64,000 bases of DNA from a virus, in IMG/VR virus record IMGVR_UViG_3300027801_002586, positions 1-64,000 of that record; one strand, given 5' to 3'. This document shows positions 2,221 to 41,536 of the stretch, piece after piece; the first letter of the stretch is position 1; each line of letters starts with the position of its first letter. A program made the position numbers and the translations under genes. The notes under the pieces were generated by a model. It ran no database searches, was not told the DNA's origin, and saw only the letters and a list, made by a program, of their open reading frames with translations.

Positions 2221-2598
2221 ATGATAAACACTATATACCTATTCATTATACTTATGTTATTTTTTGCAGGGTCTTTATACTCACAAGATAGTAATTTCAG
2301 AATTAGTGATGATACTATGGAGTTACAATTGGATAAGAAAGCACACTTCACTACTTCGTTTGGTTTGTATTATTTCTTCTACACATCTCTTACTATATAC
2401 TCTGATACTTTACCTTACCCACAATTAGATGCGATGTTATTAAGTACTTCTATAGGTTTATTATACGAGGTGTATCAAGGAACATCACTTAGTAACGCAG
2501 ATGGATTTAGTAAAGAAGATTTCTATTACAACCTTATCGGTATAGGGTTCGCTCGTTTCACTCACGAAATTATTTTACATTTTAAGGATTTAATTTAA
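2221..2598 (+). CDS. Membrane protein, YfiM/VanZ-like
   Basis: Signal/TM segments with DKKAHF...E.YQ...GFSKED..YN..G pattern. Confidence 0.5.
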   Translation: MINTIYLFIILMLFFAGSLYSQDSNFRISDDTMELQLDKKAHFTTSFGLYYFFYTSLTIYSDTLPYPQLDAMLLSTSIGLLYEVYQGTSLSNADGFSKEDFYYNLIGIGFARFTHEIILHFKDLI

Positions 2599-2641
2599 TA
2601 CTTATATATAGACTGGGTTAAACAACAATAGGTTATTGAGA

Positions 2642-4138
2642 ATGAAAAAAAGAAAAATCTTAGGAATCAATGCACTTAACCACGATGCATGTGTTACCTT
2701 ATTACATGGTAATGAAATCTTGTTCGCTGGACATAGTGAACGATATAGTGGTATTAAAAACGATTCACTACTTAACAATGAAATCCTTGCCGATGTAAAA
2801 CAATATGGTGATTGGGATGAGGTTGTTTATTATGAACGACCTTATAGTAAGAAACTACGACAGTTATATGCAGGACAATATTCAGAAGTTTTCACGAGGA
2901 AGAATCTTCCCTTAACACATTTAAAACAATTCGGTATAGATAAGATACACCATTACGTTGACCATCATTTATCTCACGCATCAGCAGGATACTATACATC
3001 ACCTTATACAGAAGCAGCAATTGTTTGTATTGATGCAATTGGTGAATGGGAAACTTGTACTATATGGTACGCTAAAGATGGTAAGTTTAAAAAACGATAT
3101 TCAGTAAGATATCCAAACTCATTAGGATTGTGGTATAGTGCTATGACTCAAAGATTAGGATTGAAACCACAAGAAGATGAGTACATCTTAATGGGTATGG
3201 CAGGTTGGGGTAAAGTTATACCAACATTAAAGAAAGAGTTAAACCGAACCTTTTTCCATAAGGGAAAAGATTTATTAAAATTTAATAAAAATTTACATCG
3301 TGGATGTCTTGACTGGGATTCAGAAGTATATCCAGATGATGGTACAGATGAATGGAAATTCACTATAGCAGCAAACGTACAGAGTATATGTGAAGATAAG
3401 ATATATAACGTATTTGCAAAAACAAAACAATTAGTACCTGAAACCGATAACATAGTATATGGTGGTGGGGTTGCATTAAATTGTGTTGCTAATTCATTAG
3501 TGGCACACGAACTTTACCCAAGTTTATGGATTCTCCCGAATCCCGGTGATGGTGGTTCATCGTTAGGGAGTGCCGCATATATATTGGGTGAGCATGTGAA
3601 CTGGCATAATTGTTTCTTGGGTTACGATATTAAAGGAAAGTATCCAACCGAGCAACTCTTAAAAGAGCTTCTCAAAGGGAACATAGTCGGAGTCGCGAAC
3701 GGGAGAGCGGAGTTTGGACCTCGGGCTTTGGGCAACCGAACTTTGATGGCAGACCCACGTGGAGATAAGATTAAAGATAAGGTAAATAAAATTAAGAAAC
3801 GACAAGAGTTTCGACCATTTGCTCCTGCAGTATTAGAGGAACACGCTCACGAGATATTTGAAATGCCCGTGAGGAAATCTCAGTATATGCAGTATGTAGC
3901 GAAATGTAAATACCCAGAGAAGTATCCTGCTATATGTCATGTAGATAACACTTCGAGAGTACAGACAGTAAGTAAGGATGATAATCCAAACTTCTATAAT
4001 CTGATAAATGAATTTTACAAAACCACGGGTTGTCCTATGGTTCTCAATACCAGTCTGAATATTAAAGGACAACCCATTGTAAACACAAAACAAGATGGAA
4101 TAGATTTCACTAAACAATATGGCGTAAAAGTATTTTGA
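2642..4138 (+). CDS. Carbamoyltransferase (NodU/CmcH family)
   Basis: HDAC, ERYS, HHLSHA, DAIGE, GGVALNC, GRAEFGPRALGNR, FRPFAP, LNTSLN motifs. Confidence 0.95.
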   Translation: MKKRKILGINALNHDACVTLLHGNEILFAGHSERYSGIKNDSLLNNEILADVKQYGDWDEVVYYERPYSKKLRQLYAGQYSEVFTRKNLPLTHLKQFGIDKIHHYVDHHLSHASAGYYTSPYTEAAIVCIDAIGEWETCTIWYAKDGKFKKRYSVRYPNSLGLWYSAMTQRLGLKPQEDEYILMGMAGWGKVIPTLKKELNRTFFHKGKDLLKFNKNLHRGCLDWDSEVYPDDGTDEWKFTIAANVQSICEDKIYNVFAKTKQLVPETDNIVYGGGVALNCVANSLVAHELYPSLWILPNPGDGGSSLGSAAYILGEHVNWHNCFLGYDIKGKYPTEQLLKELLKGNIVGVANGRAEFGPRALGNRTLMADPRGDKIKDKVNKIKKRQEFRPFAPAVLEEHAHEIFEMPVRKSQYMQYVAKCKYPEKYPAICHVDNTSRVQTVSKDDNPNFYNLINEFYKTTGCPMVLNTSLNIKGQPIVNTKQDGIDFTKQYGVKVF

Positions 4139-6638: not shown

Positions 6639-7130
6639 ATGCCGTTAAGTAGGTTTGGTAAAAGACATAAGAAAACCTTTGGTAAGAAGAAAGAAGAATG
6701 GGATGGTGATTTTAGAAAACCACCAAAGCCAGATTCTTATTATACCAAGATAAAAGGTAAGTGTAGATGGTGTAGTTATATGATAGTCCGAGATGATGAA
6801 ACCATAAACGAAAGAAGAAGTTGGCATAAAGAATGTGCAGGAGAGTATATGATTATATACCACTCTAAAGAACAGAGAGCACATTTAAGGAAAAGGGATA
6901 AGGGTAAATGTAACCATTGTGGAGTTATGGCGAAACGATGGGATTGTGACCATATCAGACCTTTGGTTGAACAGAAAGGTGTGATAGCAAAAGATTTAGA
7001 TTGGAGTTATTATAGTTTGGGTAACCTACAAACATTATGTAAAACCTGTCATAGAAAAAAAACAAATTCAGAAGTACATCTGAAAAAGAAGAGAAAAGTT
7101 AATTACAAGGAGACAAAAAAATGGGATTGA
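6639..7130 (+). CDS. HNH endonuclease
   Basis: CNHCG...DCDHIRPL...NLQTLCKTCHRKKT. Confidence 0.85.
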   Translation: MPLSRFGKRHKKTFGKKKEEWDGDFRKPPKPDSYYTKIKGKCRWCSYMIVRDDETINERRSWHKECAGEYMIIYHSKEQRAHLRKRDKGKCNHCGVMAKRWDCDHIRPLVEQKGVIAKDLDWSYYSLGNLQTLCKTCHRKKTNSEVHLKKKRKVNYKETKKWD

Positions 7131-7402
7131 ATCTAAGAGATGATTTGATTAAAGCAAGTAGATTACACTTTGAGGCTCATATAGAGAAGCATAGAATTAA
7201 TGTAGAGAACTTACTTAGTAACTCACAAGGAGTAGCAGACCATCCAGATATAATGGATACAATAGAAAAGGAGTTGGGTGAAATTTCTATTTACCACGAT
7301 TTGATGGAAGTGTTGGATAAATATTTTGATGGTGGACAGGTAACCAAAACAAGAAAACTACTAAACGAACAAATGTGTGAATGTGGTAAAAAGGTAAAAT
7401 AG
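7121..7402 (+). CDS. Conserved phage hypothetical protein
   Basis: HIEKHRINVE...HPDIMDTIEKEL pattern recalled from marine T4-like phages; SD present. Confidence 0.6.
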   Translation: MGLNLRDDLIKASRLHFEAHIEKHRINVENLLSNSQGVADHPDIMDTIEKELGEISIYHDLMEVLDKYFDGGQVTKTRKLLNEQMCECGKKVK

Positions 7403-7404
7403 TA

Positions 7405-7632
7405 ATGAAAGAACTTAAAGCAACAAGAGTCCCACCTGGAGATAGGTGGGCAATAGTAGATGGTGATGACCAAATTTATTCTTCATTAACTGAAGTATTA
7501 AATGCAATTTATATGGAATCACAAGGTACACAATTTTTTATTGATGCATTAAAGGGTGAAGTTCATGTTGAGGATGGTGTAGAAAAACCACCAACGATTA
7601 AGAAGTACTCACTCTATGGAGAAGAATATTAG
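7405..7632 (+). CDS. Hypothetical protein
   Basis: ORF packed in operon. Confidence 0.6.
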   Translation: MKELKATRVPPGDRWAIVDGDDQIYSSLTEVLNAIYMESQGTQFFIDALKGEVHVEDGVEKPPTIKKYSLYGEEY

Positions 7633-7986
7633 ATGGAGAAATTGTACTTATCGATGGTATTACTATTCTTTAGTAACATCGCAGCTTGGTGGCAATTGAA
7701 TGCTCAGTTTATATGGAAGGATAATAGATTTTGGAATAATCCATATCTGATGGCTATTTGTGGATTACCAATTGGGTTTGCATTTTGGCACGCAACACGA
7801 TTAAGTTATGAACACTTTGGATTTACATGGAATATCCGAATGATTGGGTTTGGAATTGGTACATTAGTTTTTGGTATATGTTCCTATTTATTCTTGCGAG
7901 AGATACCTACTATGAAAACCATCATATGTTTATTGTTAGCATTATCAATTATATTAATACAGGTAACGAATGTACTTGGAGAATGA
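7633..7986 (+). CDS. Four-TM membrane protein (DMT/SMR-like)
   Basis: Four hydrophobic helices in 117 aa. Confidence 0.55.
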   Translation: MEKLYLSMVLLFFSNIAAWWQLNAQFIWKDNRFWNNPYLMAICGLPIGFAFWHATRLSYEHFGFTWNIRMIGFGIGTLVFGICSYLFLREIPTMKTIICLLLALSIILIQVTNVLGE

Positions 7987-7987
7987 T

Positions 7988-8479
7988 ATGAACTTAAAAG
8001 ATTATATAGTTGATGTGCCAGATTGGCCAAAGGAAGGTATTATATTTAAAGATATAACACCATTATTAGCAAATACAAATTCATTAGAATTTGCAACATT
8101 ATCAATGAGAGGATTGTTGAATAATAAAAGTGTTCAACCAACTCACATAGTTGGTATTGAAGCAAGAGGATTTATTTTCGGAGCTCATTTAGCAAAGAGA
8201 ATGAATTGTAGTTTTATCCCACTACGAAAAAAGGGTAAGTTACCACCACCAGTAATTTCTAAAGAGTATGAATTAGAATATGGAACAGACACTTTAGAAA
8301 TCAAACCAGGTGATGGTGAACGAGTAATTATTGTTGATGATGTCTATGCCACAGGTGGTACTGCAAAGGCAGCAATAGAACTATGTTTAGAAGCTGGATA
8401 TGATGTATTAGATGAAATCTATTTAATCAATCTTAGTTTTTTAAACAAAGATAAAGTAAAATCAGTTATAACATATTAA
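7988..8479 (+). CDS. apt: Adenine phosphoribosyltransferase
   Basis: PDWPKEGIIFKDITPLL, GIEARGF, RKKGKLP, YELEYG, IVDDVYATGGT. Confidence 0.95.
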   Translation: MNLKDYIVDVPDWPKEGIIFKDITPLLANTNSLEFATLSMRGLLNNKSVQPTHIVGIEARGFIFGAHLAKRMNCSFIPLRKKGKLPPPVISKEYELEYGTDTLEIKPGDGERVIIVDDVYATGGTAKAAIELCLEAGYDVLDEIYLINLSFLNKDKVKSVITY

Positions 8480-30208: not shown

Positions 30209-30799
30209 ATGAATAAGGTAGTTGATTGTTTTAAACACGATAACCCAGTTATCCACAAAAAGTTAAGAGAGGTTTCAGTTGAAGAAGGACTTGAAATTGC
30301 CGCAGAACTATTTAAGATACTTAATGAACGAGGGGATGGCATCGGGTTGGCTGCTAATCAAGTTGGTATTGATGCTGCTGTTGCTGTACTTAATGTTCGC
30401 GAACCGATTATCTTAATTAACCCAAAAATACTTTCAAAAGAAAATGAGATACCTTATTATGAGGGATGTCTATCTTTCCCAAAGAAAGGTTGTCATACCA
30501 AACGATATGAAACCATACATATACAAACCGCACAGGAAGAGAGTGGTTGGGTGTTTAGTGGAGCATTAAGTGGAAGTGATGGTAAAGGTAGTTGGGAAAA
30601 ACATGATGCCGAAAATGACGAATTAAGATTGTTAGAAACCATATGTGTTCAACATGAGATTGACCATTTAAATGGGTTAACAATATTTGATAGGGAAGAT
30701 AAACCACAACCTATTATAAGTAAAAAGGCCGTGGGCAGGAATGAACCTTGTCCTTGTGGTAGTGGTAAGAAGTTCAAAAAATGTTGTATAGGAAAATAA
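30209..30799 (+). CDS. def: Peptide deformylase with C-terminal SEC-C motif
   Basis: [20 protein letters not shown]; [18 protein letters not shown]. Confidence 0.93.
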
Positions 30800-31669: not shown

Positions 31670-32152
31670 ATGCAAACATTTTTACCATATAGTGATTTTG
31701 AAAAATCAGCCAAAGTATTAGATTGGCGTAGACTTGGTAAACAACGAGTTGAGGGTATGCAGATTTTAAATGCTATCGAACAGAAACCAAGAAAAGATGG
31801 GAAACCATATAAGGGGTGGGTTAATCATCCTTGTAGTGTTATGTGGAAAGCATATGTACCAGCATTAAAACACTATACTAATATTATTATTACAGAGTGG
31901 ATTAATCGTGGATACAATAACAATATGAAATTCTATGCTGTTGATGATTTAGTAATACCACATTGGATAGGTGATGAGCGAATACATTCATCACACAGAG
32001 CTAACCTATTAAGAAAAGATTTTGAGTGGTATGGACAGTATGGTTGGGATGAAGGTCTCAAAGATGTAGAAACTGCACCCTATGTGTGGCATGATATTGA
32101 GGGTAAGTTTTATGAACAATTGATAGGAACGGGAGTTAGAAACTATTTATGA
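31670..32152 (+). CDS. Pyrimidine-dimer DNA glycosylase-like (MSMEG_6728/DenV family)
   Basis: MQTFLPY, LDWRRLGKQRVE, HP..MW, SHRANLLRKD. Confidence 0.85.
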   Translation: MQTFLPYSDFEKSAKVLDWRRLGKQRVEGMQILNAIEQKPRKDGKPYKGWVNHPCSVMWKAYVPALKHYTNIIITEWINRGYNNNMKFYAVDDLVIPHWIGDERIHSSHRANLLRKDFEWYGQYGWDEGLKDVETAPYVWHDIEGKFYEQLIGTGVRNYL

Positions 32153-32958: not shown

Positions 32959-33299
32959 GGGGCTGCTTGGTATCGACAGGTGTTATTTGACACTTGGGTG
33001 CAACGGAGTTTGAACAAGACTCGCTACAAAAGGTTCACTTTGATTAATTGGCACACAAGCTAATTTAACTTACGCTTACGCGTAACATCTTACTTATGAC
33101 ACCGATAGTAAGATAAGATGTCGACATCGGTAGACCACTCTTTTTATAGGTTGGAGTTAAACTTAATCTTTCAGTTAAGCCATTCTGTGTAAAATGGTGA
33201 AGTGGGTTGGAGATAACTACTTATTTGGAATCTCACTAAGTTGTGAATGACCCTTTGGAAAAAGCAGACTGGACGCGGGTTCGACTCCCGCCAGCTCCA
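32959..33299 (+). ncRNA. ssrA: tmRNA
   Basis: 5' GGGGCTG...GGTATCGAC, 3' GGACGCGGGTTCGACTCCCGCCAGCTCCA; internal tag ORF 33050-33085. Confidence 0.93.
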
Positions 33300-33333
33300 C
33301 AAAACAATAAAAAATGAAAAGGTTATATTTAAA

Positions 33334-33651
33334 ATGGTAGAATATATTTTGTTAGGTATTCTTGCTCCTGTAGTTCTCAATCTAATGCACTTATTGGTTG
33401 GGATATATGTGGTGGTACAAAGAGGTAGTGTAATGTCATTAGGATTTTCTGGCATAAGTTTCTTAACTAAAACAATCGGAATGATGCTTCTAACTTGGGT
33501 AGGGGTAAGTAAATTAAACTTAGACGTTCAGATATTTGTGCCAATGTTGGCATTCTTTTGGTTCTTTACTCATATAGTAGAAGCCTTTGTGATACAACAT
33601 TACATAGATGAAAATCAATCTGAATATATTAAAGGGATACAAATAAAATGA
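33334..33651 (+). CDS. Multi-TM membrane protein (AtpI-like topology)
   Basis: Hydrophobic helices; upstream part of the track ORF overlaps tmRNA, so start moved. Confidence 0.55.
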   Translation: MVEYILLGILAPVVLNLMHLLVGIYVVVQRGSVMSLGFSGISFLTKTIGMMLLTWVGVSKLNLDVQIFVPMLAFFWFFTHIVEAFVIQHYIDENQSEYIKGIQIK

Positions 33652-34270: not shown

Positions 34271-35890
34271 ATGAAAAAATGGTTTTATGAGAGAAGTAAG
34301 TTCTCTGAGTTTAAATCAAATACGACTTATCATAAGTTGTTAGAGATGTCAGTAGAGGATTTCAATGAGTGGGCACGATTGCTAAGACAAGAAGTAACTA
34401 CTCAATGGGATGAGTATGGAACACCACCTGTAATCGGTAGAGATGAAGATGGTATTATTCAAAAATTCAAAAAATTAAAAGACAATCCTTGTAATTATTT
34501 AATTGAAGATAATACTGGTGATGATGAATCACTTGGTATAATTAAAAACTTCAATAAAGATGCAAGTAGTGTTAATCAATTCTTCCCAACAATGTTAAAA
34601 ACAAAAATCAGTATTGGTGCATCAGCCGATAATGGATTATCTATATACGACCACTTTGGTGACCCAGAGTTAGAAGATAAGTTTGTTCACATTATGCGTA
34701 GAGCAGTAAAGAAAGATTCTATGTATAGTTGGAGTAGAAGTATTGTAACCAAGAAAGATGAGAATCCATTTTGGAATGGACAGACTGGTAAAGAGTTTAT
34801 TAGAGATGTACACGAGGGTAAAGTGTTTACTGGTAAATACAAAGATACAGGTATTGTACTTGCAAGAGTAAAAGAAAATACTGTCGGTAATTATGGTACA
34901 ATGAATGAAGAGTTTAAAGGACATGGAAATGTTTATTTAACTGCAGAGGAAGTACAAGAGTGTAAAGATAGTGGTTACTTGAATGATACACAATTAAGTA
35001 ACATACCAGATATAGTTTCAAGCGAAACGAGTAAGACTGGTAATGTAACTAAGTTCTTATATTTGATTAGACATTATGACAAAACTATCGGAATCTTTCC
35101 AAAGATATTACAAGTGTTTAGATTAGCGTGTGGACAACCTGCAGTAAACTTTCCACCATTAACTGCTAAACTTTTGTATGAAAAATTTACAAATCATATA
35201 GAAAATCAAGAACAAAAATTTCATATCTATGACCCATCCGCAGGTTGGGGTGGTAGAATATTAGGAGCAATGAGTTCTCGTAAGAATATTCATTATGTAG
35301 GTACAGACCCTAACCCAGATAACTTAGGTAGATATCAAGCAGTTGCTGATTTCTATAATAGTAATTGTGTTGATGATTTTTCTGATAACTTCAATAAGTT
35401 TTTTGATGTAGAGAAACAATCAAACACGTATGAAGTATTTAGTGATGGGAGTGAATTAATATCTAACAATCCAGCATTTCAAAAATATAAAGGTAAGTTG
35501 GATGTAGTATTTACTTCGCCACCATACTTTAATCGTGAACAATATTCCCAAGATGAGAATCAGTCGTTCAAAGCCTATAGTGAGTATCAAGACTGGAGAG
35601 ATAACTTCTTAGAACCCACTTTACGAACTGCGTATGAGTATCTCAAACGAGATAGATATATCCTTTGGAACATCGCTAGTATAAAGATAGGAGCAAATAC
35701 CTACTATGATTTAGAGGGTGATAGTAGAAAAATATTAGAAGAGCTTGGTTGTGAGTATAAAGGAAAGCTAAAAATGTTAATGACAAGGATGATTGGCTTA
35801 GACCCAAGTAAGACTGGAATATTAAATTCAGTACAATATGATAATAATGTTTATAAATTTGAACCTATATTTGTGTACTATAAAAGATGA
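34271..35890 (+). CDS. SAM-dependent amino-methyltransferase-fold DNA modification enzyme
   Basis: YDPSAGWGGR (motif I) and FTSPPYF (motif IV). Confidence 0.85.
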   Translation: MKKWFYERSKFSEFKSNTTYHKLLEMSVEDFNEWARLLRQEVTTQWDEYGTPPVIGRDEDGIIQKFKKLKDNPCNYLIEDNTGDDESLGIIKNFNKDASSVNQFFPTMLKTKISIGASADNGLSIYDHFGDPELEDKFVHIMRRAVKKDSMYSWSRSIVTKKDENPFWNGQTGKEFIRDVHEGKVFTGKYKDTGIVLARVKENTVGNYGTMNEEFKGHGNVYLTAEEVQECKDSGYLNDTQLSNIPDIVSSETSKTGNVTKFLYLIRHYDKTIGIFPKILQVFRLACGQPAVNFPPLTAKLLYEKFTNHIENQEQKFHIYDPSAGWGGRILGAMSSRKNIHYVGTDPNPDNLGRYQAVADFYNSNCVDDFSDNFNKFFDVEKQSNTYEVFSDGSELISNNPAFQKYKGKLDVVFTSPPYFNREQYSQDENQSFKAYSEYQDWRDNFLEPTLRTAYEYLKRDRYILWNIASIKIGANTYYDLEGDSRKILEELGCEYKGKLKMLMTRMIGLDPSKTGILNSVQYDNNVYKFEPIFVYYKR

Positions 35891-36573
35891 TAATAATTAA
35901 AGCAAACTCACCAACAGATGCTTGGATACAATCACACGAGTATCTTTTAGCAAATGGTAACAAAGATGTGATGAATGAAAGTATTAATATGTCGGTAGAG
36001 ATAGAAGATAACTTCGATGTCGATATAAAATTTGATGGAGTATTCAGAGAAATCTTTGGTGATGATAGAATAGATTATGCAAGTTCAGTTACATTTGTTA
36101 AACCAACAGAACATCCGTTTATGGATGAGTTACAATACAAACAGAATGATATCAAAGTAAAGTGGAATAAAACTTATTGGGGTAGAATGATTAATTGGGA
36201 TAATAGTTTTAATCAAATAGAACAAGTTATTAAAAGATTAAAAGAACATAAGAATAGTAAAACAATTGCAATGAGTATCTATGACCCAAAATCAGATGGT
36301 AGAAAAACTATGAGTGGAATGCCATGTTTATTATCGATAGATTTAAAACCACGAAAAGATGGATTGTATTTAACAGCATTCTTTCGTAGTATGAGAATTA
36401 GTAAAAGTGGTTATGCTGATTGGATGGCGTTGTGTGAATTAGGTAAGTTCTTATGTGAACAAGCAAATTTAAAATTAAAACGAGTTACCACAATTGGCGG
36501 TTCGGTACATATTGGGGATATGAATAACGAAAAGAAAAATGTGAGGGAGTTGCTTAGTGTGTGGAATAGTTAG
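35887..36573 (+). CDS. Thymidylate synthase/dCMP hydroxymethylase superfamily protein
   Basis: Y.GR, MPCL catalytic Cys, RSMRISKSGYAD, GSVHI. Confidence 0.8.
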   Translation: MIIIKANSPTDAWIQSHEYLLANGNKDVMNESINMSVEIEDNFDVDIKFDGVFREIFGDDRIDYASSVTFVKPTEHPFMDELQYKQNDIKVKWNKTYWGRMINWDNSFNQIEQVIKRLKEHKNSKTIAMSIYDPKSDGRKTMSGMPCLLSIDLKPRKDGLYLTAFFRSMRISKSGYADWMALCELGKFLCEQANLKLKRVTTIGGSVHIGDMNNEKKNVRELLSVWNS

Positions 36574-38062
36574 TACTATTGGTTATACAGAAGATGATGT
36601 AGAGGTGATGTTACAGGAGATTGAACATCGAGGTAGAGACAACAGAGAAATTTATCAGAGTGGTAATGTTATACTTGGACATAATCGTTTAAGTATTAAT
36701 GATGTTAGTTCAGATGGGAATCAACCATTCGTATGGAATGATTATGCACTTGTAGTTAATGGTGAGATATGGAACTATCCACAATTAAGAAAAGAATATG
36801 AAGAACGAGGTTATAGATTTTTTAGTAATAGTGATTCGGAAATAATTTTATATTTGTATAAGGAGAATGAGTTACCAAGATTAGATGGTATGTTTAGTTT
36901 TGCACTACACGATACAATGACTAATCAATTAATTCTATCGAGAGATTGGGTTGGTAAGATACCATTATATATTTACAATAATGATACGAATATTATAGTA
37001 GCATCTGAAATGAAATCCATACTAAAAATATTACCACAAGCAGAATGTAAGTTTGTACCAAAAAATTCGGTGGTTACAATAGGAACTGAAACTGGAACAA
37101 TACATATTGAGAAAGATTATTATTTTAGTTTTTCGAAATATGAAGTAAAAGAATTTGACCAAGATGAAGTGAATAAAAAAACATATGAGTTATTGGATAA
37201 CGCTATTGAAAAAAGATTATTAAGTGATGTTAAGGTTGCAACTTGTTTGAGTGGTGGAATTGATTCAAGTGTGATTACTTATTTGTTAAGTAAGAAAGTA
37301 CCTGATATAGTATCTTATACAGTCAAGTTCGATGAAGATTCAAGAGATTTAATGTTTGCAAGAATGGTTGCAAAACATATTGATGTACCATTGGTTGAGG
37401 TTGAGATACCAAGAGACCCAGAAGAAATAAAAAGAAAATTTTTAGAAACAATTAGGGTTATAGAATATCCATCAACAGTCCAAATGGAAGTTGGTATTTT
37501 ACAAAGTTATGTTGCAGAACAAATGGCAAAGGATGGGGTTAAGGTTGCGTTTAGTGGTGAAGGTTCTGATGAGGCGTATGGTTCATATGGTATGGTAAGA
37601 ATGTTCAGTAAGAAACCTGACTGGAGTGATGTAAGAAAAAAGATGTTTGAAAAACAATACTATGGTAATTTACTTCGTGGTAATAATATTTTTATGAACT
37701 ATGGAACAATCGAATTAAGATGTCCATTCTTCGATTTGGATTTTTTAAATTACACCACAAACTTGAATCAGCCAGTATTGGATAATGGTGGTAACCAATG
37801 GAAGAAACCACTTGCTGAAGCATTTCGTGGCCACTTACCAGATGAAGTATGTGACCAAGAGAAAAGAGCATTTCAAAAGGGAACAAACTTTAAAGACTAT
37901 ATAGAAGATTTAATTCTTAATGATAGAGATTTAAATTTTAGAAATAGAAAAAAACTATTTCATTGTATAGGAGATAACTTTGAAAAAATATTTGGTTTCA
38001 AACATAAAGGTATGAGAGATACTTTGAGTGGAACTGAAAGTGGATTTAATAAATGGGCATGA
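36557..38062 (+). CDS. Asparagine synthase B-like glutamine amidotransferase
   Basis: N-terminal CGI, HRG, RLSI, NGEIWN, SDSE, LSGGIDSS, SGEGSDE, ELRCPF. Confidence 0.92.
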   Translation: MCGIVSTIGYTEDDVEVMLQEIEHRGRDNREIYQSGNVILGHNRLSINDVSSDGNQPFVWNDYALVVNGEIWNYPQLRKEYEERGYRFFSNSDSEIILYLYKENELPRLDGMFSFALHDTMTNQLILSRDWVGKIPLYIYNNDTNIIVASEMKSILKILPQAECKFVPKNSVVTIGTETGTIHIEKDYYFSFSKYEVKEFDQDEVNKKTYELLDNAIEKRLLSDVKVATCLSGGIDSSVITYLLSKKVPDIVSYTVKFDEDSRDLMFARMVAKHIDVPLVEVEIPRDPEEIKRKFLETIRVIEYPSTVQMEVGILQSYVAEQMAKDGVKVAFSGEGSDEAYGSYGMVRMFSKKPDWSDVRKKMFEKQYYGNLLRGNNIFMNYGTIELRCPFFDLDFLNYTTNLNQPVLDNGGNQWKKPLAEAFRGHLPDEVCDQEKRAFQKGTNFKDYIEDLILNDRDLNFRNRKKLFHCIGDNFEKIFGFKHKGMRDTLSGTESGFNKWA

Positions 38063-38898
38063 TAGAAACACCAATAGAAACCTATAAACTAAGTGGTATT
38101 GATGTAGATGTTAAACGAGATGATTTAGTTGGTGATGGTATTAATTATCCACGATGGGCAAAGATAGATGGTATCCGAAGAATATTAGAGAGTGCTGATA
38201 TAGATAAAACAAAACCACTAACACATTTATCAGTATATGGAAGTTGGACAGGTTGGGTACTGAGTGGTTTATGTAAAGAATATGGAATAGAATTTATTTC
38301 TGCTTATCCAGATACCCAAAGGTTTCCACAAATATTATTAGAAAGAGTTGTGGGTAATGGGGGAACTCTACATCCTATGAGACCCAACATGATGGCGTTT
38401 ATGCAAAATAAATTAAACACCCAAGCAAAAGAAAATGGTTGGCAACAATTACCATACGCGTTTAATCATCCAGCATATATTAATTACATGGGTGAGAGAA
38501 TGAAACAAGTTTTAGAAGAAAATGAATATGATAATCTTATAGTTAGTATCGGAAGTGGTGTTACTGCAAGTGGATTAATAAAAGAGTTTTTAGAATACAA
38601 TGATGATTGGTGGAAATTATCTGCCAAATCAAAAAAAGTTTATTCAATCACGATGAGTGCATTCTCATCAACAAAAAAGATTTTAAATGAGAATCACGCA
38701 GGTGATTTAAAAAACATACTACTCGAAAAATCACCATATGCATTTGATGATATGATGGATGACTATAAAGTACCATTTGATTGTAACGAATTTTGGGACA
38801 AGAAACAATGGTATTGGTTAGAGAATAATATACAGAACTTAAAAGGTAAAACCTTATTTTGGAATATCGGCGGTTCTTATTTAAATTCAATAAAATGA
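38053..38898 (+). CDS. PLP-dependent fold-type II enzyme (ACC deaminase/cysteine desulfhydrase-like)
   Basis: TPIE, VKRDDL...AK, SIGSGVTASG, LFWNIGG. Confidence 0.75.
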   Translation: MGMIETPIETYKLSGIDVDVKRDDLVGDGINYPRWAKIDGIRRILESADIDKTKPLTHLSVYGSWTGWVLSGLCKEYGIEFISAYPDTQRFPQILLERVVGNGGTLHPMRPNMMAFMQNKLNTQAKENGWQQLPYAFNHPAYINYMGERMKQVLEENEYDNLIVSIGSGVTASGLIKEFLEYNDDWWKLSAKSKKVYSITMSAFSSTKKILNENHAGDLKNILLEKSPYAFDDMMDDYKVPFDCNEFWDKKQWYWLENNIQNLKGKTLFWNIGGSYLNSIK

Positions 38899-38907
38899 AA
38901 AAAACAC

Positions 38908-38937
38908 TTGACTTGTATGGGCAAAAAGCCTTATATT
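38908..38937 (+). promoter_or_regulatory. Early promoter P12
   Basis: TTGACT-18-TATATT. Confidence 0.8.
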
Positions 38938-38970
38938 AAGTCATACTAAAATTGGAGATATATAAATAAT

Positions 38971-39744
38971 ATGAAGAGTTTAACAGCAGAAAAAATACAA
39001 GAGAATTACAACTCACTGCGAAATATTATCACTATGAATTTCTCGGGTGAACGACTTGAGAAATTAAATAAGATGTATGATTATTTCGAGGATAGGATGA
39101 TGTTAGCACCAGCAAGTGCAAAGGAACATTATCACAATGCTATGGTGGGTGGATATGTAGAACACGTATTACACATTGTAGATTTTTCACAATCAGTAAA
39201 AAAGTTGTGGGAAGAAAAGGGAGCAGAAATTGATTTTACAGATGAAGAATTAATCTTTGCTGCATTACATCACGACTTAGGTAAAGTAGGTAATTTAGAT
39301 TATGATTACTATATACCAAATGAATCAGATTGGCATAGGAAGAATCAAGGTAAGATTTATACACACAACCCTGAATTACCTTATATGACAGTAACGGATA
39401 GAGCATTTTATTTACTTCAACATTTTCAAATACCTTTAACAGAAAACGAATATATGGGTTTAATGTTAACAGATGGGATGTATGAAGATGCAAATAAAAA
39501 ATACTTAATGACGTTCTTACCAGAGACTGGATTACGAAGTCATATATCACGAATATTACACCAAGCAGATATGATGGCAACATTTATAGAATCTGATGAA
39601 TGGAAGCGTGGAGATAAAAAAGAAACTAAACGAGTTGCTAAATCAGTTGGTAACATCAAAAATGCAGTTGCAACAGAAGTTGATACTAAACTCAAAGGTG
39701 AAAATGCTAAAGAGTTATTTAACGAGTTGTTTGGAGATAAATAA
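38971..39744 (+). CDS. HD-domain phosphohydrolase
   Basis: APAS..HYH...GGYVEH, LHHDLGK, LHQAD. Confidence 0.85.
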   Translation: MKSLTAEKIQENYNSLRNIITMNFSGERLEKLNKMYDYFEDRMMLAPASAKEHYHNAMVGGYVEHVLHIVDFSQSVKKLWEEKGAEIDFTDEELIFAALHHDLGKVGNLDYDYYIPNESDWHRKNQGKIYTHNPELPYMTVTDRAFYLLQHFQIPLTENEYMGLMLTDGMYEDANKKYLMTFLPETGLRSHISRILHQADMMATFIESDEWKRGDKKETKRVAKSVGNIKNAVATEVDTKLKGENAKELFNELFGDK

Positions 39745-40004: not shown

Positions 40005-40727
40005 ATGCCACCAAAAGCAAAAAAGACATCACCACGATATTACTTTCATCAAGGAACTGAAGATGCAATCGTCAGATTGAATAAAGAAACTCGTGCTCAT
40101 ATGAAACAACGAATTTACAATGAACATATTCGCACACCATTTGAGAAACTTGCTGAGAATATAATTCATACATTTAAATTTTATTACTTTGATGTTCCAT
40201 CGGATGATGTGAAACACGAAGTGGTATCATTCTTATATATGAACATCCACAAATTTGCTGAAGGTAAGGGAAAAGCTTTTTCATACTTTAGTATTGTTGC
40301 TAAGAATTATTTAATTTTACATAACAACAATAACTACAAGAAGATGAAACAACATGATTCTGAAGATGTAATGGATTATAAAAGAGACCCTGTCGGAGAA
40401 CTTCGAGGTAAGGAATCTAAATCTATGGCAATGGAATATATAGAACAACTTGCGGATTATTGGAGAAATAATTTAACAACAGTCTTTAAACGAAAGAAAG
40501 ATTTGGATGTTGCTAATTCTGTAGTGGAGTTAATTGATATGAGACATAATATTGATAACTTTAATAAGAAAGCATTATACATTCTTATTCGTGAGATGAC
40601 GGGTTCTAATACACAACACATTACTCGTGTAATTAATGTGATGAAGAAACATCATAATAATCTACACAAGGCTTATGTAGCTACTGGTTCAGTTGATACT
40701 AAACGAACTGGTAGTTGGTTTGAGTGA
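40005..40727 (+). CDS. Putative late sigma factor (gp55/sigma region 2-like)
   Basis: KLAENI...DVKHE...KF.EGKGKAFSYFSIVAKNYLI resembles sigma region 2; sits before structural genes. Confidence 0.55.
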   Translation: MPPKAKKTSPRYYFHQGTEDAIVRLNKETRAHMKQRIYNEHIRTPFEKLAENIIHTFKFYYFDVPSDDVKHEVVSFLYMNIHKFAEGKGKAFSYFSIVAKNYLILHNNNNYKKMKQHDSEDVMDYKRDPVGELRGKESKSMAMEYIEQLADYWRNNLTTVFKRKKDLDVANSVVELIDMRHNIDNFNKKALYILIREMTGSNTQHITRVINVMKKHHNNLHKAYVATGSVDTKRTGSWFE

Positions 40728-41536
40728 AACTCTATAAACAAGATTGGGATTATCGGAAAATAAATACCGATGAATATCCACAATTAAAAGCGATTACATC
40801 ACAACCAAATTCTTTTTGGATAATAAGTAATCCTAAAAAACCACTCAAACGAGTTACAACAAGAATACGAAGATTATGTAGAAGAGCACATCCATACCAA
40901 CCTATTATAGTTTTATATGCTATACCTGGTAGAGATGTAGGTGGACATTCAAAGGGTGGGTTATCTGATAAACAATATATAAAATATATTGGAGATATTG
41001 CAAAAGGTATTGGTTCATATAAACCAATAGTAATATTCGAACCTGATGCTATTCCACATATGAGAAGGATGAATTTCTTTCAACGAACAAGTCGAACAAG
41101 GTTAATCAGAAAATCTTTAAAACTCTTATCACAATGTAGTGCACAAATTTATCTTGATATAGGACATCCCAATTGGTTAAAGGTTGGAGATGCGTCTACT
41201 TATTTAAATCTTTTTAATGATAATAAGATAAAAGGCTTTTCAGTTAATGTAAGTAACTTTGTTACTACGGATAAATGTATTCGATGGGGTGATAAAGTTT
41301 CCGATAGAACCGATTTAAATTATATTATAGATACATCAAGGAATGGTACTGAAGTATGGGAAACCTTTAATCCAGAAGAAATGAAACTTGGAGAAAAACC
41401 AACAATCAGAACTTCATCAAGAAGTTGTGATGCTTATCTTTGGATTAAAACACCAGGTGAAAGTGATGGTGCCGTAAATGGTTGGCCTAAAGCTGGTAGA
41501 TTTGATGCTGAAAAAACCTTATCTCTTATAAACTAA
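40724..41536 (+). CDS. Glycoside hydrolase family 6
   Basis: YAIPGRD, FEPDA, YLDIGHPNW, NVSNF, IDTSRNG, DAYLWIKTPGESDG. Confidence 0.9.
   Translation: MKLYKQDWDYRKINTDEYPQLKAITSQPNSFWIISNPKKPLKRVTTRIRRLCRRAHPYQPIIVLYAIPGRDVGGHSKGGLSDKQYIKYIGDIAKGIGSYKPIVIFEPDAIPHMRRMNFFQRTSRTRLIRKSLKLLSQCSAQIYLDIGHPNWLKVGDASTYLNLFNDNKIKGFSVNVSNFVTTDKCIRWGDKVSDRTDLNYIIDTSRNGTEVWETFNPEEMKLGEKPTIRTSSRSCDAYLWIKTPGESDGAVNGWPKAGRFDAEKTLSLIN

Follow-up and report, generated by a model that had tools for sequence, protein, structure and literature searches.

Hypermodification of phage DNA defeats restriction enzymes and CRISPR nucleases, and its study has yielded new enzymology and tools. The published routes to pyrimidine hypermodification that we considered start either from a hydroxyl handle (5-hydroxymethylcytosine, 5-hydroxymethyluracil or 5-hydroxycytosine) or from carboxymethylation dependent on carboxy-S-adenosylmethionine (Cx-SAM). 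Here we describe a module without those starters. It is present as a block of five genes in the window, i.e. the first 64 kb (64,000 nucleotides, ∼33% G+C across its whole length) of an 82,069-bp contig of an uncultured marine phage from IMG/VR (IMGVR_UViG_3300027801_002586, below G000; CheckV completeness 45%). The block codes, in this order, for a methyltransferase-like (MT-like) protein, a short homolog of thymidylate synthase (TS), an AsnB-type glutamine amidotransferase, a pyridoxal 5′-phosphate (PLP) enzyme of fold type II and an HD-domain protein. We give a probability of about 0.6 to the reading that these genes belong to a virus-only, modular system for DNA base hypermodification that operates without the known starters, a reading that rests on homology and on the comparative pattern. 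Read in this way, the block is one variant (MT-TS-AsnB-PLP-HD) of that modular, undescribed system.

Two described systems come closest. The first is thymidine hypermodification in Pseudomonas phage M6 and Salmonella phage ViI (Lee et al., NAR 2021, PMC8989533). Purified M6 gp52 and ViI gp226 decarboxylate amino acids attached to thymine in DNA; the substrate that gp52 decarboxylates in DNA is C-alpha-glycinylthymidine, and its Lys36 is predicted to bind PLP. The block resembles this system in its gp52-type PLP enzyme, with the same lysine and the same C-terminal FWNIG, in the presence of a TS-family enzyme within the cluster and of an HD-domain gene close by, and in the combinatorial shuffling of tailoring genes between phages. 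Unlike M6 and ViI, the block has no 5-hydroxymethyldeoxyuridine (5-hmdU) DNA kinase, no amino acid:DNA transferase and no isomerase of the gp53 type, a radical S-adenosylmethionine (SAM) enzyme; its TS is of the cytosine type (Asp) rather than the uracil type; and it carries an AsnB amidotransferase and an SPPY MT-like enzyme. Wherever PMC8989533 mentions amidoligase and glutaminotransferase domains, the contigs concerned have the kinase and the transferase as well.

The second is the CmoA/CmoX/CmoY system of Synechococcus phage S-B43 (Yang et al., Nat Commun 2025, PMC12783734), which makes 5-carboxymethylcytosine and its glycine amide. Here a methyltransferase-fold enzyme transfers a non-methyl group and an AsnB-like enzyme amidates a carboxylate on a DNA base: CmoY, an asparagine-synthetase homolog, ligates glycine to 5-carboxymethylcytosine in DNA, while a second CmoY group with a glutaminase domain is predicted to use ammonia. 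As in S-B43, an AsnB-family enzyme of the block is encoded close to a methyltransferase-fold enzyme in a replication region. The differences are that the block lacks CmoA; that the MT-like protein is of the N6/N4 type with SPPY, not a C5-methyltransferase with SPPC and Arg350; that the similarity to CmoY amounts to only 23%; and that the block has a PLP enzyme and a TS homolog, neither of which is mentioned in PMC12783734. According to the same source, no candidates for an N6-adenine or N4-cytosine carboxymethyltransferase were found with CmoA.

Single components have other counterparts. T4 dCMP hydroxymethylase, MilA and the flavin-dependent 5-hydroxy-dCMP synthases of RB69, DLP3 and HY126 (PMC5175136, PMC13326640), TS homologs that act at the nucleotide level, share with the TS of the window the fold, the catalytic Cys, Asp at position N177 and a residue other than Leu at position L143 (E. 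coli numbering); the TS of the window differs in being short, in having Arg at D169 (theirs have Asp or Asn) and in having Gly for the ribose-binding Tyr. Phage Mu Mom, which forms N6-carbamoylmethyladenine (PMC13219725), would be comparable only if the MT-like and AsnB enzymes shared one exocyclic amine, both then giving an amide-bearing N-substituted base; Mom is a single GNAT-fold enzyme using glycyl-tRNA, and no homology was seen. A nucleotide search with the block against 50,697 phage records gave no match. We found no paper that describes this gene combination; supplementary figures of PMC12783734 and PMC8989533 might show related sets.

An earlier note, made from the letters of the window, had proposed four overlapping open reading frames (ORFs): an SPPY SAM enzyme, a TS homolog, an AsnB-like amidotransferase and a fold-type II PLP enzyme. 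We recovered the four on the plus strand at exactly the same coordinates (Table 1), with consecutive overlaps (MT/TS, TS/AsnB, AsnB/PLP) of 4, 17 and 10 nt, and profile matches or alignments upheld all four family calls. The HD gene, which was not in that list, begins 72 nt past the end of the PLP gene and is the fifth member of the conserved block. The start of the AsnB gene is fixed, because the nucleophile Cys must directly follow the initiator (MCGIVS). We saw no terminator-like sites on the plus strand inside the block, and scans for promoters and terminators gave nothing above shuffled sequences. The block is not a chance arrangement: among 52 related MT loci, 12 have the order MT-TS-AsnB-PLP-HD too.

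Table 1. Genes of the block, with positions in the window
Product	Position	Strand	Size	Family assignment
MT-like protein	34271-35890	+	539 aa	PF01555, phrog_12517
Short TS homolog	35887-36573	+	228 aa	PF00303
AsnB-type glutamine amidotransferase	36557-38062	+	501 aa, GTG start	Asn_synthase + GATase_7, TIGR01536
Fold-type II PLP enzyme, M6 gp52 subfamily	38053-38898	+	281 aa	phrog_7093, gp52 alignment
HD-domain phosphohydrolase-like protein	38971-39744	+	257 aa	phrog_28876, phrog_5889

The PLP enzyme provides a link to DNA modification. Its proposed kinship with the M6 enzyme proved to be real homology: the proteins align end to end (residues 6-273) with 27% identity and a pairwise E-value of 4e-26, and Lys37, the candidate PLP lysine, falls on gp52 Lys36. 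In the family alignment K37, F269, W270, N271 and G273 are invariant in all 32 sequences, gp52 included; the match to phrog_7093 has an E-value of 1.4e-22. No Pfam family matched the enzyme of the window; PF00291 (PALP) gave 39.5 bits to M6 gp52, and the profile of the PLP family reached an ACC deaminase homolog (1j0a) at E 0.007. A search with the PLP alignment gave 248 candidate stretches, of which 196 were confirmed as viral loci; the best 80 were kept. Among cellular genomes (one genome for each of 185,579 species) four loci were found, all only 26% identical to the query; the family is almost virus-only. By its similarity to gp52, the enzyme would have as its substrate a DNA base that bears an alpha-amino acid as side chain.

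Around this gene we saw a pattern that is widespread, yet not rigid. The 96 loci with a near-full PLP gene formed 31 clusters at 90% identity, and neighbours were counted within 6 kb of the PLP gene. An MT-like gene was present in 27 of the 31 (the other four had cut-short flanks or an MT gene 7 kb away), AsnB in 23, with a relative consisting of the PP-loop part only in one more, and the HD gene, which is conserved directly downstream of PLP, in 9. A TS gene was found in 13 and a D-2-hydroxyacid dehydrogenase gene in 14 loci, both together in none (0/31). Further neighbours were an Asp/Asn-hydroxylase-like oxygenase (7/31), PolB (15/31) and the large subunit of ribonucleotide reductase (11/31). 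Starting from the other end, with ORF1 as query, we fetched 52 viral loci, and a PLP homolog was within the fetched flanks in 26. A search for co-occurrence in phage neighbourhoods was one of the checks that the earlier note had proposed, and by these counts (full order at 12/52 MT loci, MT-like gene at 27/31 PLP loci) the genes do co-occur widely. Its picture of a four-gene unit holds as far as widespread co-occurrence goes; the unit is not obligate, given that locus L011 has the MT-like gene but not the other three, that TS+AsnB can be swapped, and that one genome rated complete (G006) has no TS.

The exchange of partners was traced on a tree of the PLP gene (32 rows; L020, with a truncated gene, was left out). 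The TS/dehydrogenase label requires five changes on this tree, at least four of them forced by well-supported branches; L096, for example, is a dehydrogenase locus within a TS clade. By this tree, TS+AsnB and AsnB+2-hydroxyacid dehydrogenase are interchangeable cassettes beside a constant PLP gene. The PLP gene relies on MT-like neighbours one-sidedly; the reverse does not hold.

The absence of the known starter enzymes, which had been noticed in the window, was borne out for the whole 82-kb contig and for two near-complete genomes carrying the same genes. The amino acid:DNA transferase (PF18724) was absent from five records, including G000, G001 (276 kb, 100% complete) and G002 (169 kb, 95%), as well as from 14 further viral records, including G006 (100%) and G007 (93%); the M6 control was found at 2.3e-48. 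The 5-hmdU kinase (PF18748) was absent from G000, G001, G002, G003 and G004 (PF18723 was not searched). CmoA (TIGR00740) was absent from G000, G001, G002, G006 and G007, with the E. coli control scoring over the cut-off. A Cx-SAM route was dropped, as CmoA is missing and the Bacteroides control gave no match to it.

The TS homolog hints at the base that is probably concerned. It matches PF00303 with 34.4 bits (cut-off 24.3) and TIGR03283 with 82 bits, below the cut-off of the latter; for a profile of 13 family members the best solved relative is MilA (CMP 5-hydroxymethylase, E 1.4e-6), followed by 9iqu/9iqc. We read the alignments against the residues described in PMC5175136 and PMC13326640. 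Catalytic Cys147 aligns with MilA Cys155, Asp178, at the N177 position, with MilA Asp186, and Arg170, at the D169 position, with the Asp of MilA RAND; each of the three is invariant (13/13). Gly144 is at the L143 position, and Ser168 is a residue of the deoxy type. Asp at the N177 position marks cytosine substrates (PMC5175136), in keeping with the earlier choice of cytosine as the target base, and the uracil-type Asn of a dUMP hydroxymethylase is not what the homolog has there. The modified base in the MT-TS-AsnB-PLP-HD variant is probably cytosine. Position 169 is diagnostic for cofactor or product, hydroxymethylases having Asp and 5-hydroxy-dCMP synthases Asn (PMC13326640); the homolog has neither the folate-type Asp nor the Asn. 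Judged by the alignment, its Arg is a third state. Replacement of the folate-binding Asp by Arg170 suggests a co-substrate other than folate, perhaps a carboxylate-bearing one. We also considered the short TS as the phage's ordinary dTMP synthase and dropped this option, given the Asp178/Arg170 signature and the fact that G001 codes for a canonical ThyA (316 bits) besides the short TS; ThyX was absent from five records.

In the AsnB homolog the motifs of the glutaminase (Cys2, MCGIVS, HNRLSI, NGEIWN, SDSEI) and of the PP-loop synthetase (SGGIDSS, SGEGSDE) are intact. The acceptor region departs from that of E. coli AsnB, with VQME for TTIR (321-324) and RGNN for RANK (Lys376), residues which we take to serve aspartate binding or aspartyl-AMP formation in the E. 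coli enzyme. Such VQME/RGNN-type motifs are conserved in all 13 TS-linked homologs, and the acceptor region as a whole separates two AsnB subtypes, one beside TS (13/13) and the other beside the dehydrogenase (10/10). All 23 AsnB genes start with Cys after the initiator. The protein matches E. coli AsnB (1ct9) at E 1.5e-47, and a remote relationship links its synthetase domain with S-B43 CmoY (23% identity over 277 aa, pairwise E 1e-8); a search among cultured phages returned few relatives, none of them informative. We predict a glutamine- and ATP-dependent amidotransferase that converts a carboxylate to an amide. In one lineage (L077, positions 7084-8010; also L078-L081, L084 and L088) AsnB is replaced by a 308-aa PP-loop-only protein without the glutaminase domain and with weak similarity to CmoY (24% over 139 aa, E 3e-4); given these two features, a different amine may be ligated in that lineage.

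The C-terminal part of the MT-like protein has a class I SAM-methyltransferase fold with motif I (YDPSAGWGGR), an acidic GTDPN and motif IV (FTSPPYF, amino-methyltransferase type); the match to PF01555 (N6_N4_Mtase; residues 411-538, FTSPPYF included) is marginal, 29 bits at a cut-off of 26.7. D321, G325 and R329 of motif I, D346, S416, Y425, Q431, W442 and N467 are invariant in an alignment of 48 sequences, in which P417, P418 and Y419 are kept in at least 90%, and F[TS]SPPYF is present in 36 of 36 MT-like ORFs. The AlphaFold2 (AF2) model has a pLDDT of 91.4. The N-terminal domain of ∼290 aa matched no known family, and for residues 1-290 Foldseek found nothing and the protein atlas nothing usable. 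No C5-methyltransferase family matched the protein in the Pfam scan. The family is large (2061 protein clusters at 90% identity, among related phage contigs), and none of 3930 representative relatives at E ≤ 1e-3 is named. Against phage proteins ORF1 had partial matches only (≤30% identity, 29-48% cover), in Staphylococcus, Mammaliicoccus, Bacteroides, Vibrio and Listeria phages; around the match in Bacteroides phage SJC03, the single neighbourhood viewed, all proteins are hypothetical. The contig of L051 has, at a distance of ∼77 kb from the block (G003:C1:99126-101495), an intact MT-like paralog of 407 aa beside a copy split into open frames of 175 and 238 aa.

The HD protein has an HHDLGK motif. 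Its AF2 model (pLDDT 73.8) has as best solved match the HD domain of YhaM (E 8.5e-5, TMq 0.48); neither this structure match nor profile searches pointed to a specific relative, and no function follows.

By the homologies described above, all four enzymes encoded by the overlapping genes have relatives that modify nucleic acid bases, three of them relatives acting on DNA. The final base probably carries an amide, an amine or both, and the modification probably hides the viral genome from host nucleases. One could outline a pathway as follows. Before replication, the TS-like enzyme would turn dCMP into a C5-substituted dCMP, and the AsnB-like enzyme would amidate a carboxylate of this product with glutamine-derived ammonia; these two steps are suggested by the AsnB subtype that travels with TS, by the cytosine-type Asp and by Arg at the cofactor position. 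On DNA, the MT-like enzyme would modify an exocyclic amine. It is the best candidate for installing an amino-acid-like group, maybe the aminocarboxypropyl group of SAM, because the substrate of a PLP enzyme must have a primary amine adjacent to a carboxylate and the MT-like gene accompanies PLP in 27 of 31 loci, even in loci without TS. Trimming of this group would then fall to the gp52-like enzyme, in the simplest case through a decarboxylation that leaves an amine. Nucleotide pools are a possible target of the HD protein. In sister cassettes, the dehydrogenase hints at a 2-oxo acid intermediate.

Transfer of aminocarboxypropyl from SAM, rather than methyl, had been suggested as a possibility in the earlier note; two patterns, the nearness of the MT-like gene to PLP and its occurrence without PLP, fit it but do not show it. 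A more specific version would involve two new activities, the MT-like protein being a DNA aminocarboxypropyl (or other non-methyl) transferase for an exocyclic amine and the TS homolog taking a carboxylate-bearing co-substrate in place of folate and placing on C5 of dCMP a carboxylated group that AsnB amidates; a doubly modified cytosine would be the outcome, by a route without known counterpart. Since the MT-like protein would here supply the substrate of the gp52-like enzyme, neither the kinase nor the amino acid:DNA transferase would be needed. We offer this version tentatively and consider it rather unlikely as a whole.

Several observations weigh against the proposed hypermodification system or against parts of the outlined pathway. 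The order of the steps and the number of substituents are guesses, since decarboxylation and amidation exclude each other on one side chain with a single carboxylate; unless two substituents are made, the PLP enzyme must catalyse another reaction than decarboxylation here. In G006, rated complete, the PLP module is of the dehydrogenase form, and no TS was found by Pfam or by the family profile (which in G008 detects a TS that Pfam misses); TS is therefore not needed for the PLP substrate in G006. The MT-like gene also exists without PLP, e.g. in L011 (where MT is followed directly by HD, without the TS-AsnB-PLP trio), L023 and L052. Among 14 MT contigs with no PLP in the flank, one had PLP further off, three had weak PLP-like matches and ten had none, these ten all being fragments (4-38% complete). 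The nearness of MT and PLP may in part be inherited gene order, as the MT-like gene is situated in a replication module near the genes for ribonucleotide reductase and PolB. In G002 (95% complete) the only MT-family gene is that in the block. Foldseek with the MT model returned generic class I methyltransferases and no specific relative. The AsnB homolog passes the NCBI cut-off of the asparagine synthase model TIGR01536 (295 bits versus 267). In the TS homolog, Lys125, beside the deoxy-type Ser168, matches MilA Lys133′, which favours ribonucleotides, and Gly210 takes the place of the ribose-binding Tyr. Finally, all loci come from uncultured viruses.

Some of these points would be explained if the genes were independent neighbours in a nucleotide-metabolism and replication module, sharing no pathway. 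The MT-like protein would then be an orphan DNA methyltransferase for N4-cytosine or N6-adenine, the TS homolog a TS or dCMP hydroxymethylase that supplies nucleotides, the AsnB gene an auxiliary metabolic gene for asparagine synthetase, and the PLP enzyme part of amino-acid metabolism. The AsnB score, the MT-like genes on contigs without PLP and the generic methyltransferase fold agree with such a view, as does the company of the related loci, which adjoin genes for ribonucleotide reductase, thioredoxin, NTP pyrophosphatase, PolB and the clamp. Nevertheless, we consider it improbable: the PLP family is nearly confined to viruses and DNA is the substrate of its sole studied member; the AsnB subtype changes along with its partner, TS or dehydrogenase, and the acceptor region of the AsnB homolog departs from the TTIR and RANK of E. 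coli AsnB, with the role that we presume for them; Asp at N177 with Arg at D169 is, by the published signatures, not a dTMP synthase, and G001 has ThyA as well; there are overlaps between the genes, and MT-like neighbours have stayed with the PLP gene across several rearrangements.

Slightly less credible still is that the enzymes act on free nucleotides or nucleosides, the product being a modified cytidine-type metabolite (as in MilA/mildiomycin and BcmA/bacimethrin) or a modified nucleotide that serves as a signal or inhibitor. It is true that the best solved relative of the TS homolog, MilA, is a CMP hydroxymethylase of antibiotic biosynthesis and that Lys125 agrees with a ribonucleotide; also, no dNMP kinase or dCTPase turned up in the block, where no search was aimed at either. 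Yet Ser168 is of the deoxy type, the other three enzymes have DNA-acting relatives, the genes are part of the DNA replication module in large phages of lytic type, and the 31 neighbourhoods showed neither a glycosidase nor any other gene of an antibiotic pathway. A hypermodification of thymidine of the M6/ViI type, for which the kinase and transferase genes would have to lie in the half of the genome that was not sequenced, is suggested by the 45% completeness of the contig and by the gp52 homolog, but it is very improbable given that G001 and G002 lack both PF18724 and PF18748, that G006 and G007 lack PF18724, that the uracil-specifying position of TS has Asp, not Asn, and that M6 gp54 had no match in G000 (a search run without a positive control).

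The hypermodification module thus favoured is widespread in marine viromes, with 196 viral PLP loci and thousands of MT-like relatives. Its elucidation would add at least one DNA base to those known, probably along with new activities of the TS fold and of a methyltransferase fold, and would account for a variable region that is conserved across a large group of ocean phages. Nearly identical DNA was present in 14 DNA runs from 8 studies (9 of the runs may be the source sample) and, in part, in 6 RNA-library runs. Contigs from four metatranscriptome runs of four studies cover parts of all five genes, in two runs without any difference. These contigs are compatible with expression and are no proof of transcription; the uncovered parts carry no meaning. 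Between the PLP and HD genes (38898-38939) contigs of four metatranscriptome runs stop, one side continuing with unrelated sequence, which suggests a boundary of recombination or strain variation directly after the PLP gene.

Some relatives have additional genes in or near the module. In L070, whose TS and AsnB are 98% identical to those of the window, a 473-aa radical SAM gene (2447-3868) lies between AsnB and PLP; its first residues repeat the N-terminus of the PLP enzyme, which suggests insertion at the PLP start. With a best pairwise E of 0.42, this protein was rejected as a relative of M6 gp53; B12-binding radical SAM families are its weak matches. Another radical SAM protein, of 259 aa, is encoded in L057 (2761-3540), a 94%-identical relative, 0.7 kb upstream of the MT gene; the window is without that gene. 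In L082 (1663-2662) a small class I methyltransferase (PCMT-like) adjoins a SET-domain protein near the module.

The surroundings of the block have several features of their own. A phage-borne transfer-messenger RNA (tmRNA; ARAGORN), with the tag peptide GTQANLTYAYA, is located ∼1 kb upstream (32959-33300, plus strand); the ORFs listed over it (33171-33455, minus strand; 33247-33651, plus strand) may be spurious. Further upstream, on the plus strand, are genes for a peptide deformylase with a C-terminal SEC-C zinc motif (30209-30799) and for a DenV-type pyrimidine dimer DNA glycosylase (31670-32152). Downstream, an ORF of 270 aa (40724-41536, plus strand) matches glycosyl hydrolase family 6, a cellulase family, with an E-value of 1.3e-40; such a gene is unusual for a phage, and it is kept downstream of the block in close relatives.

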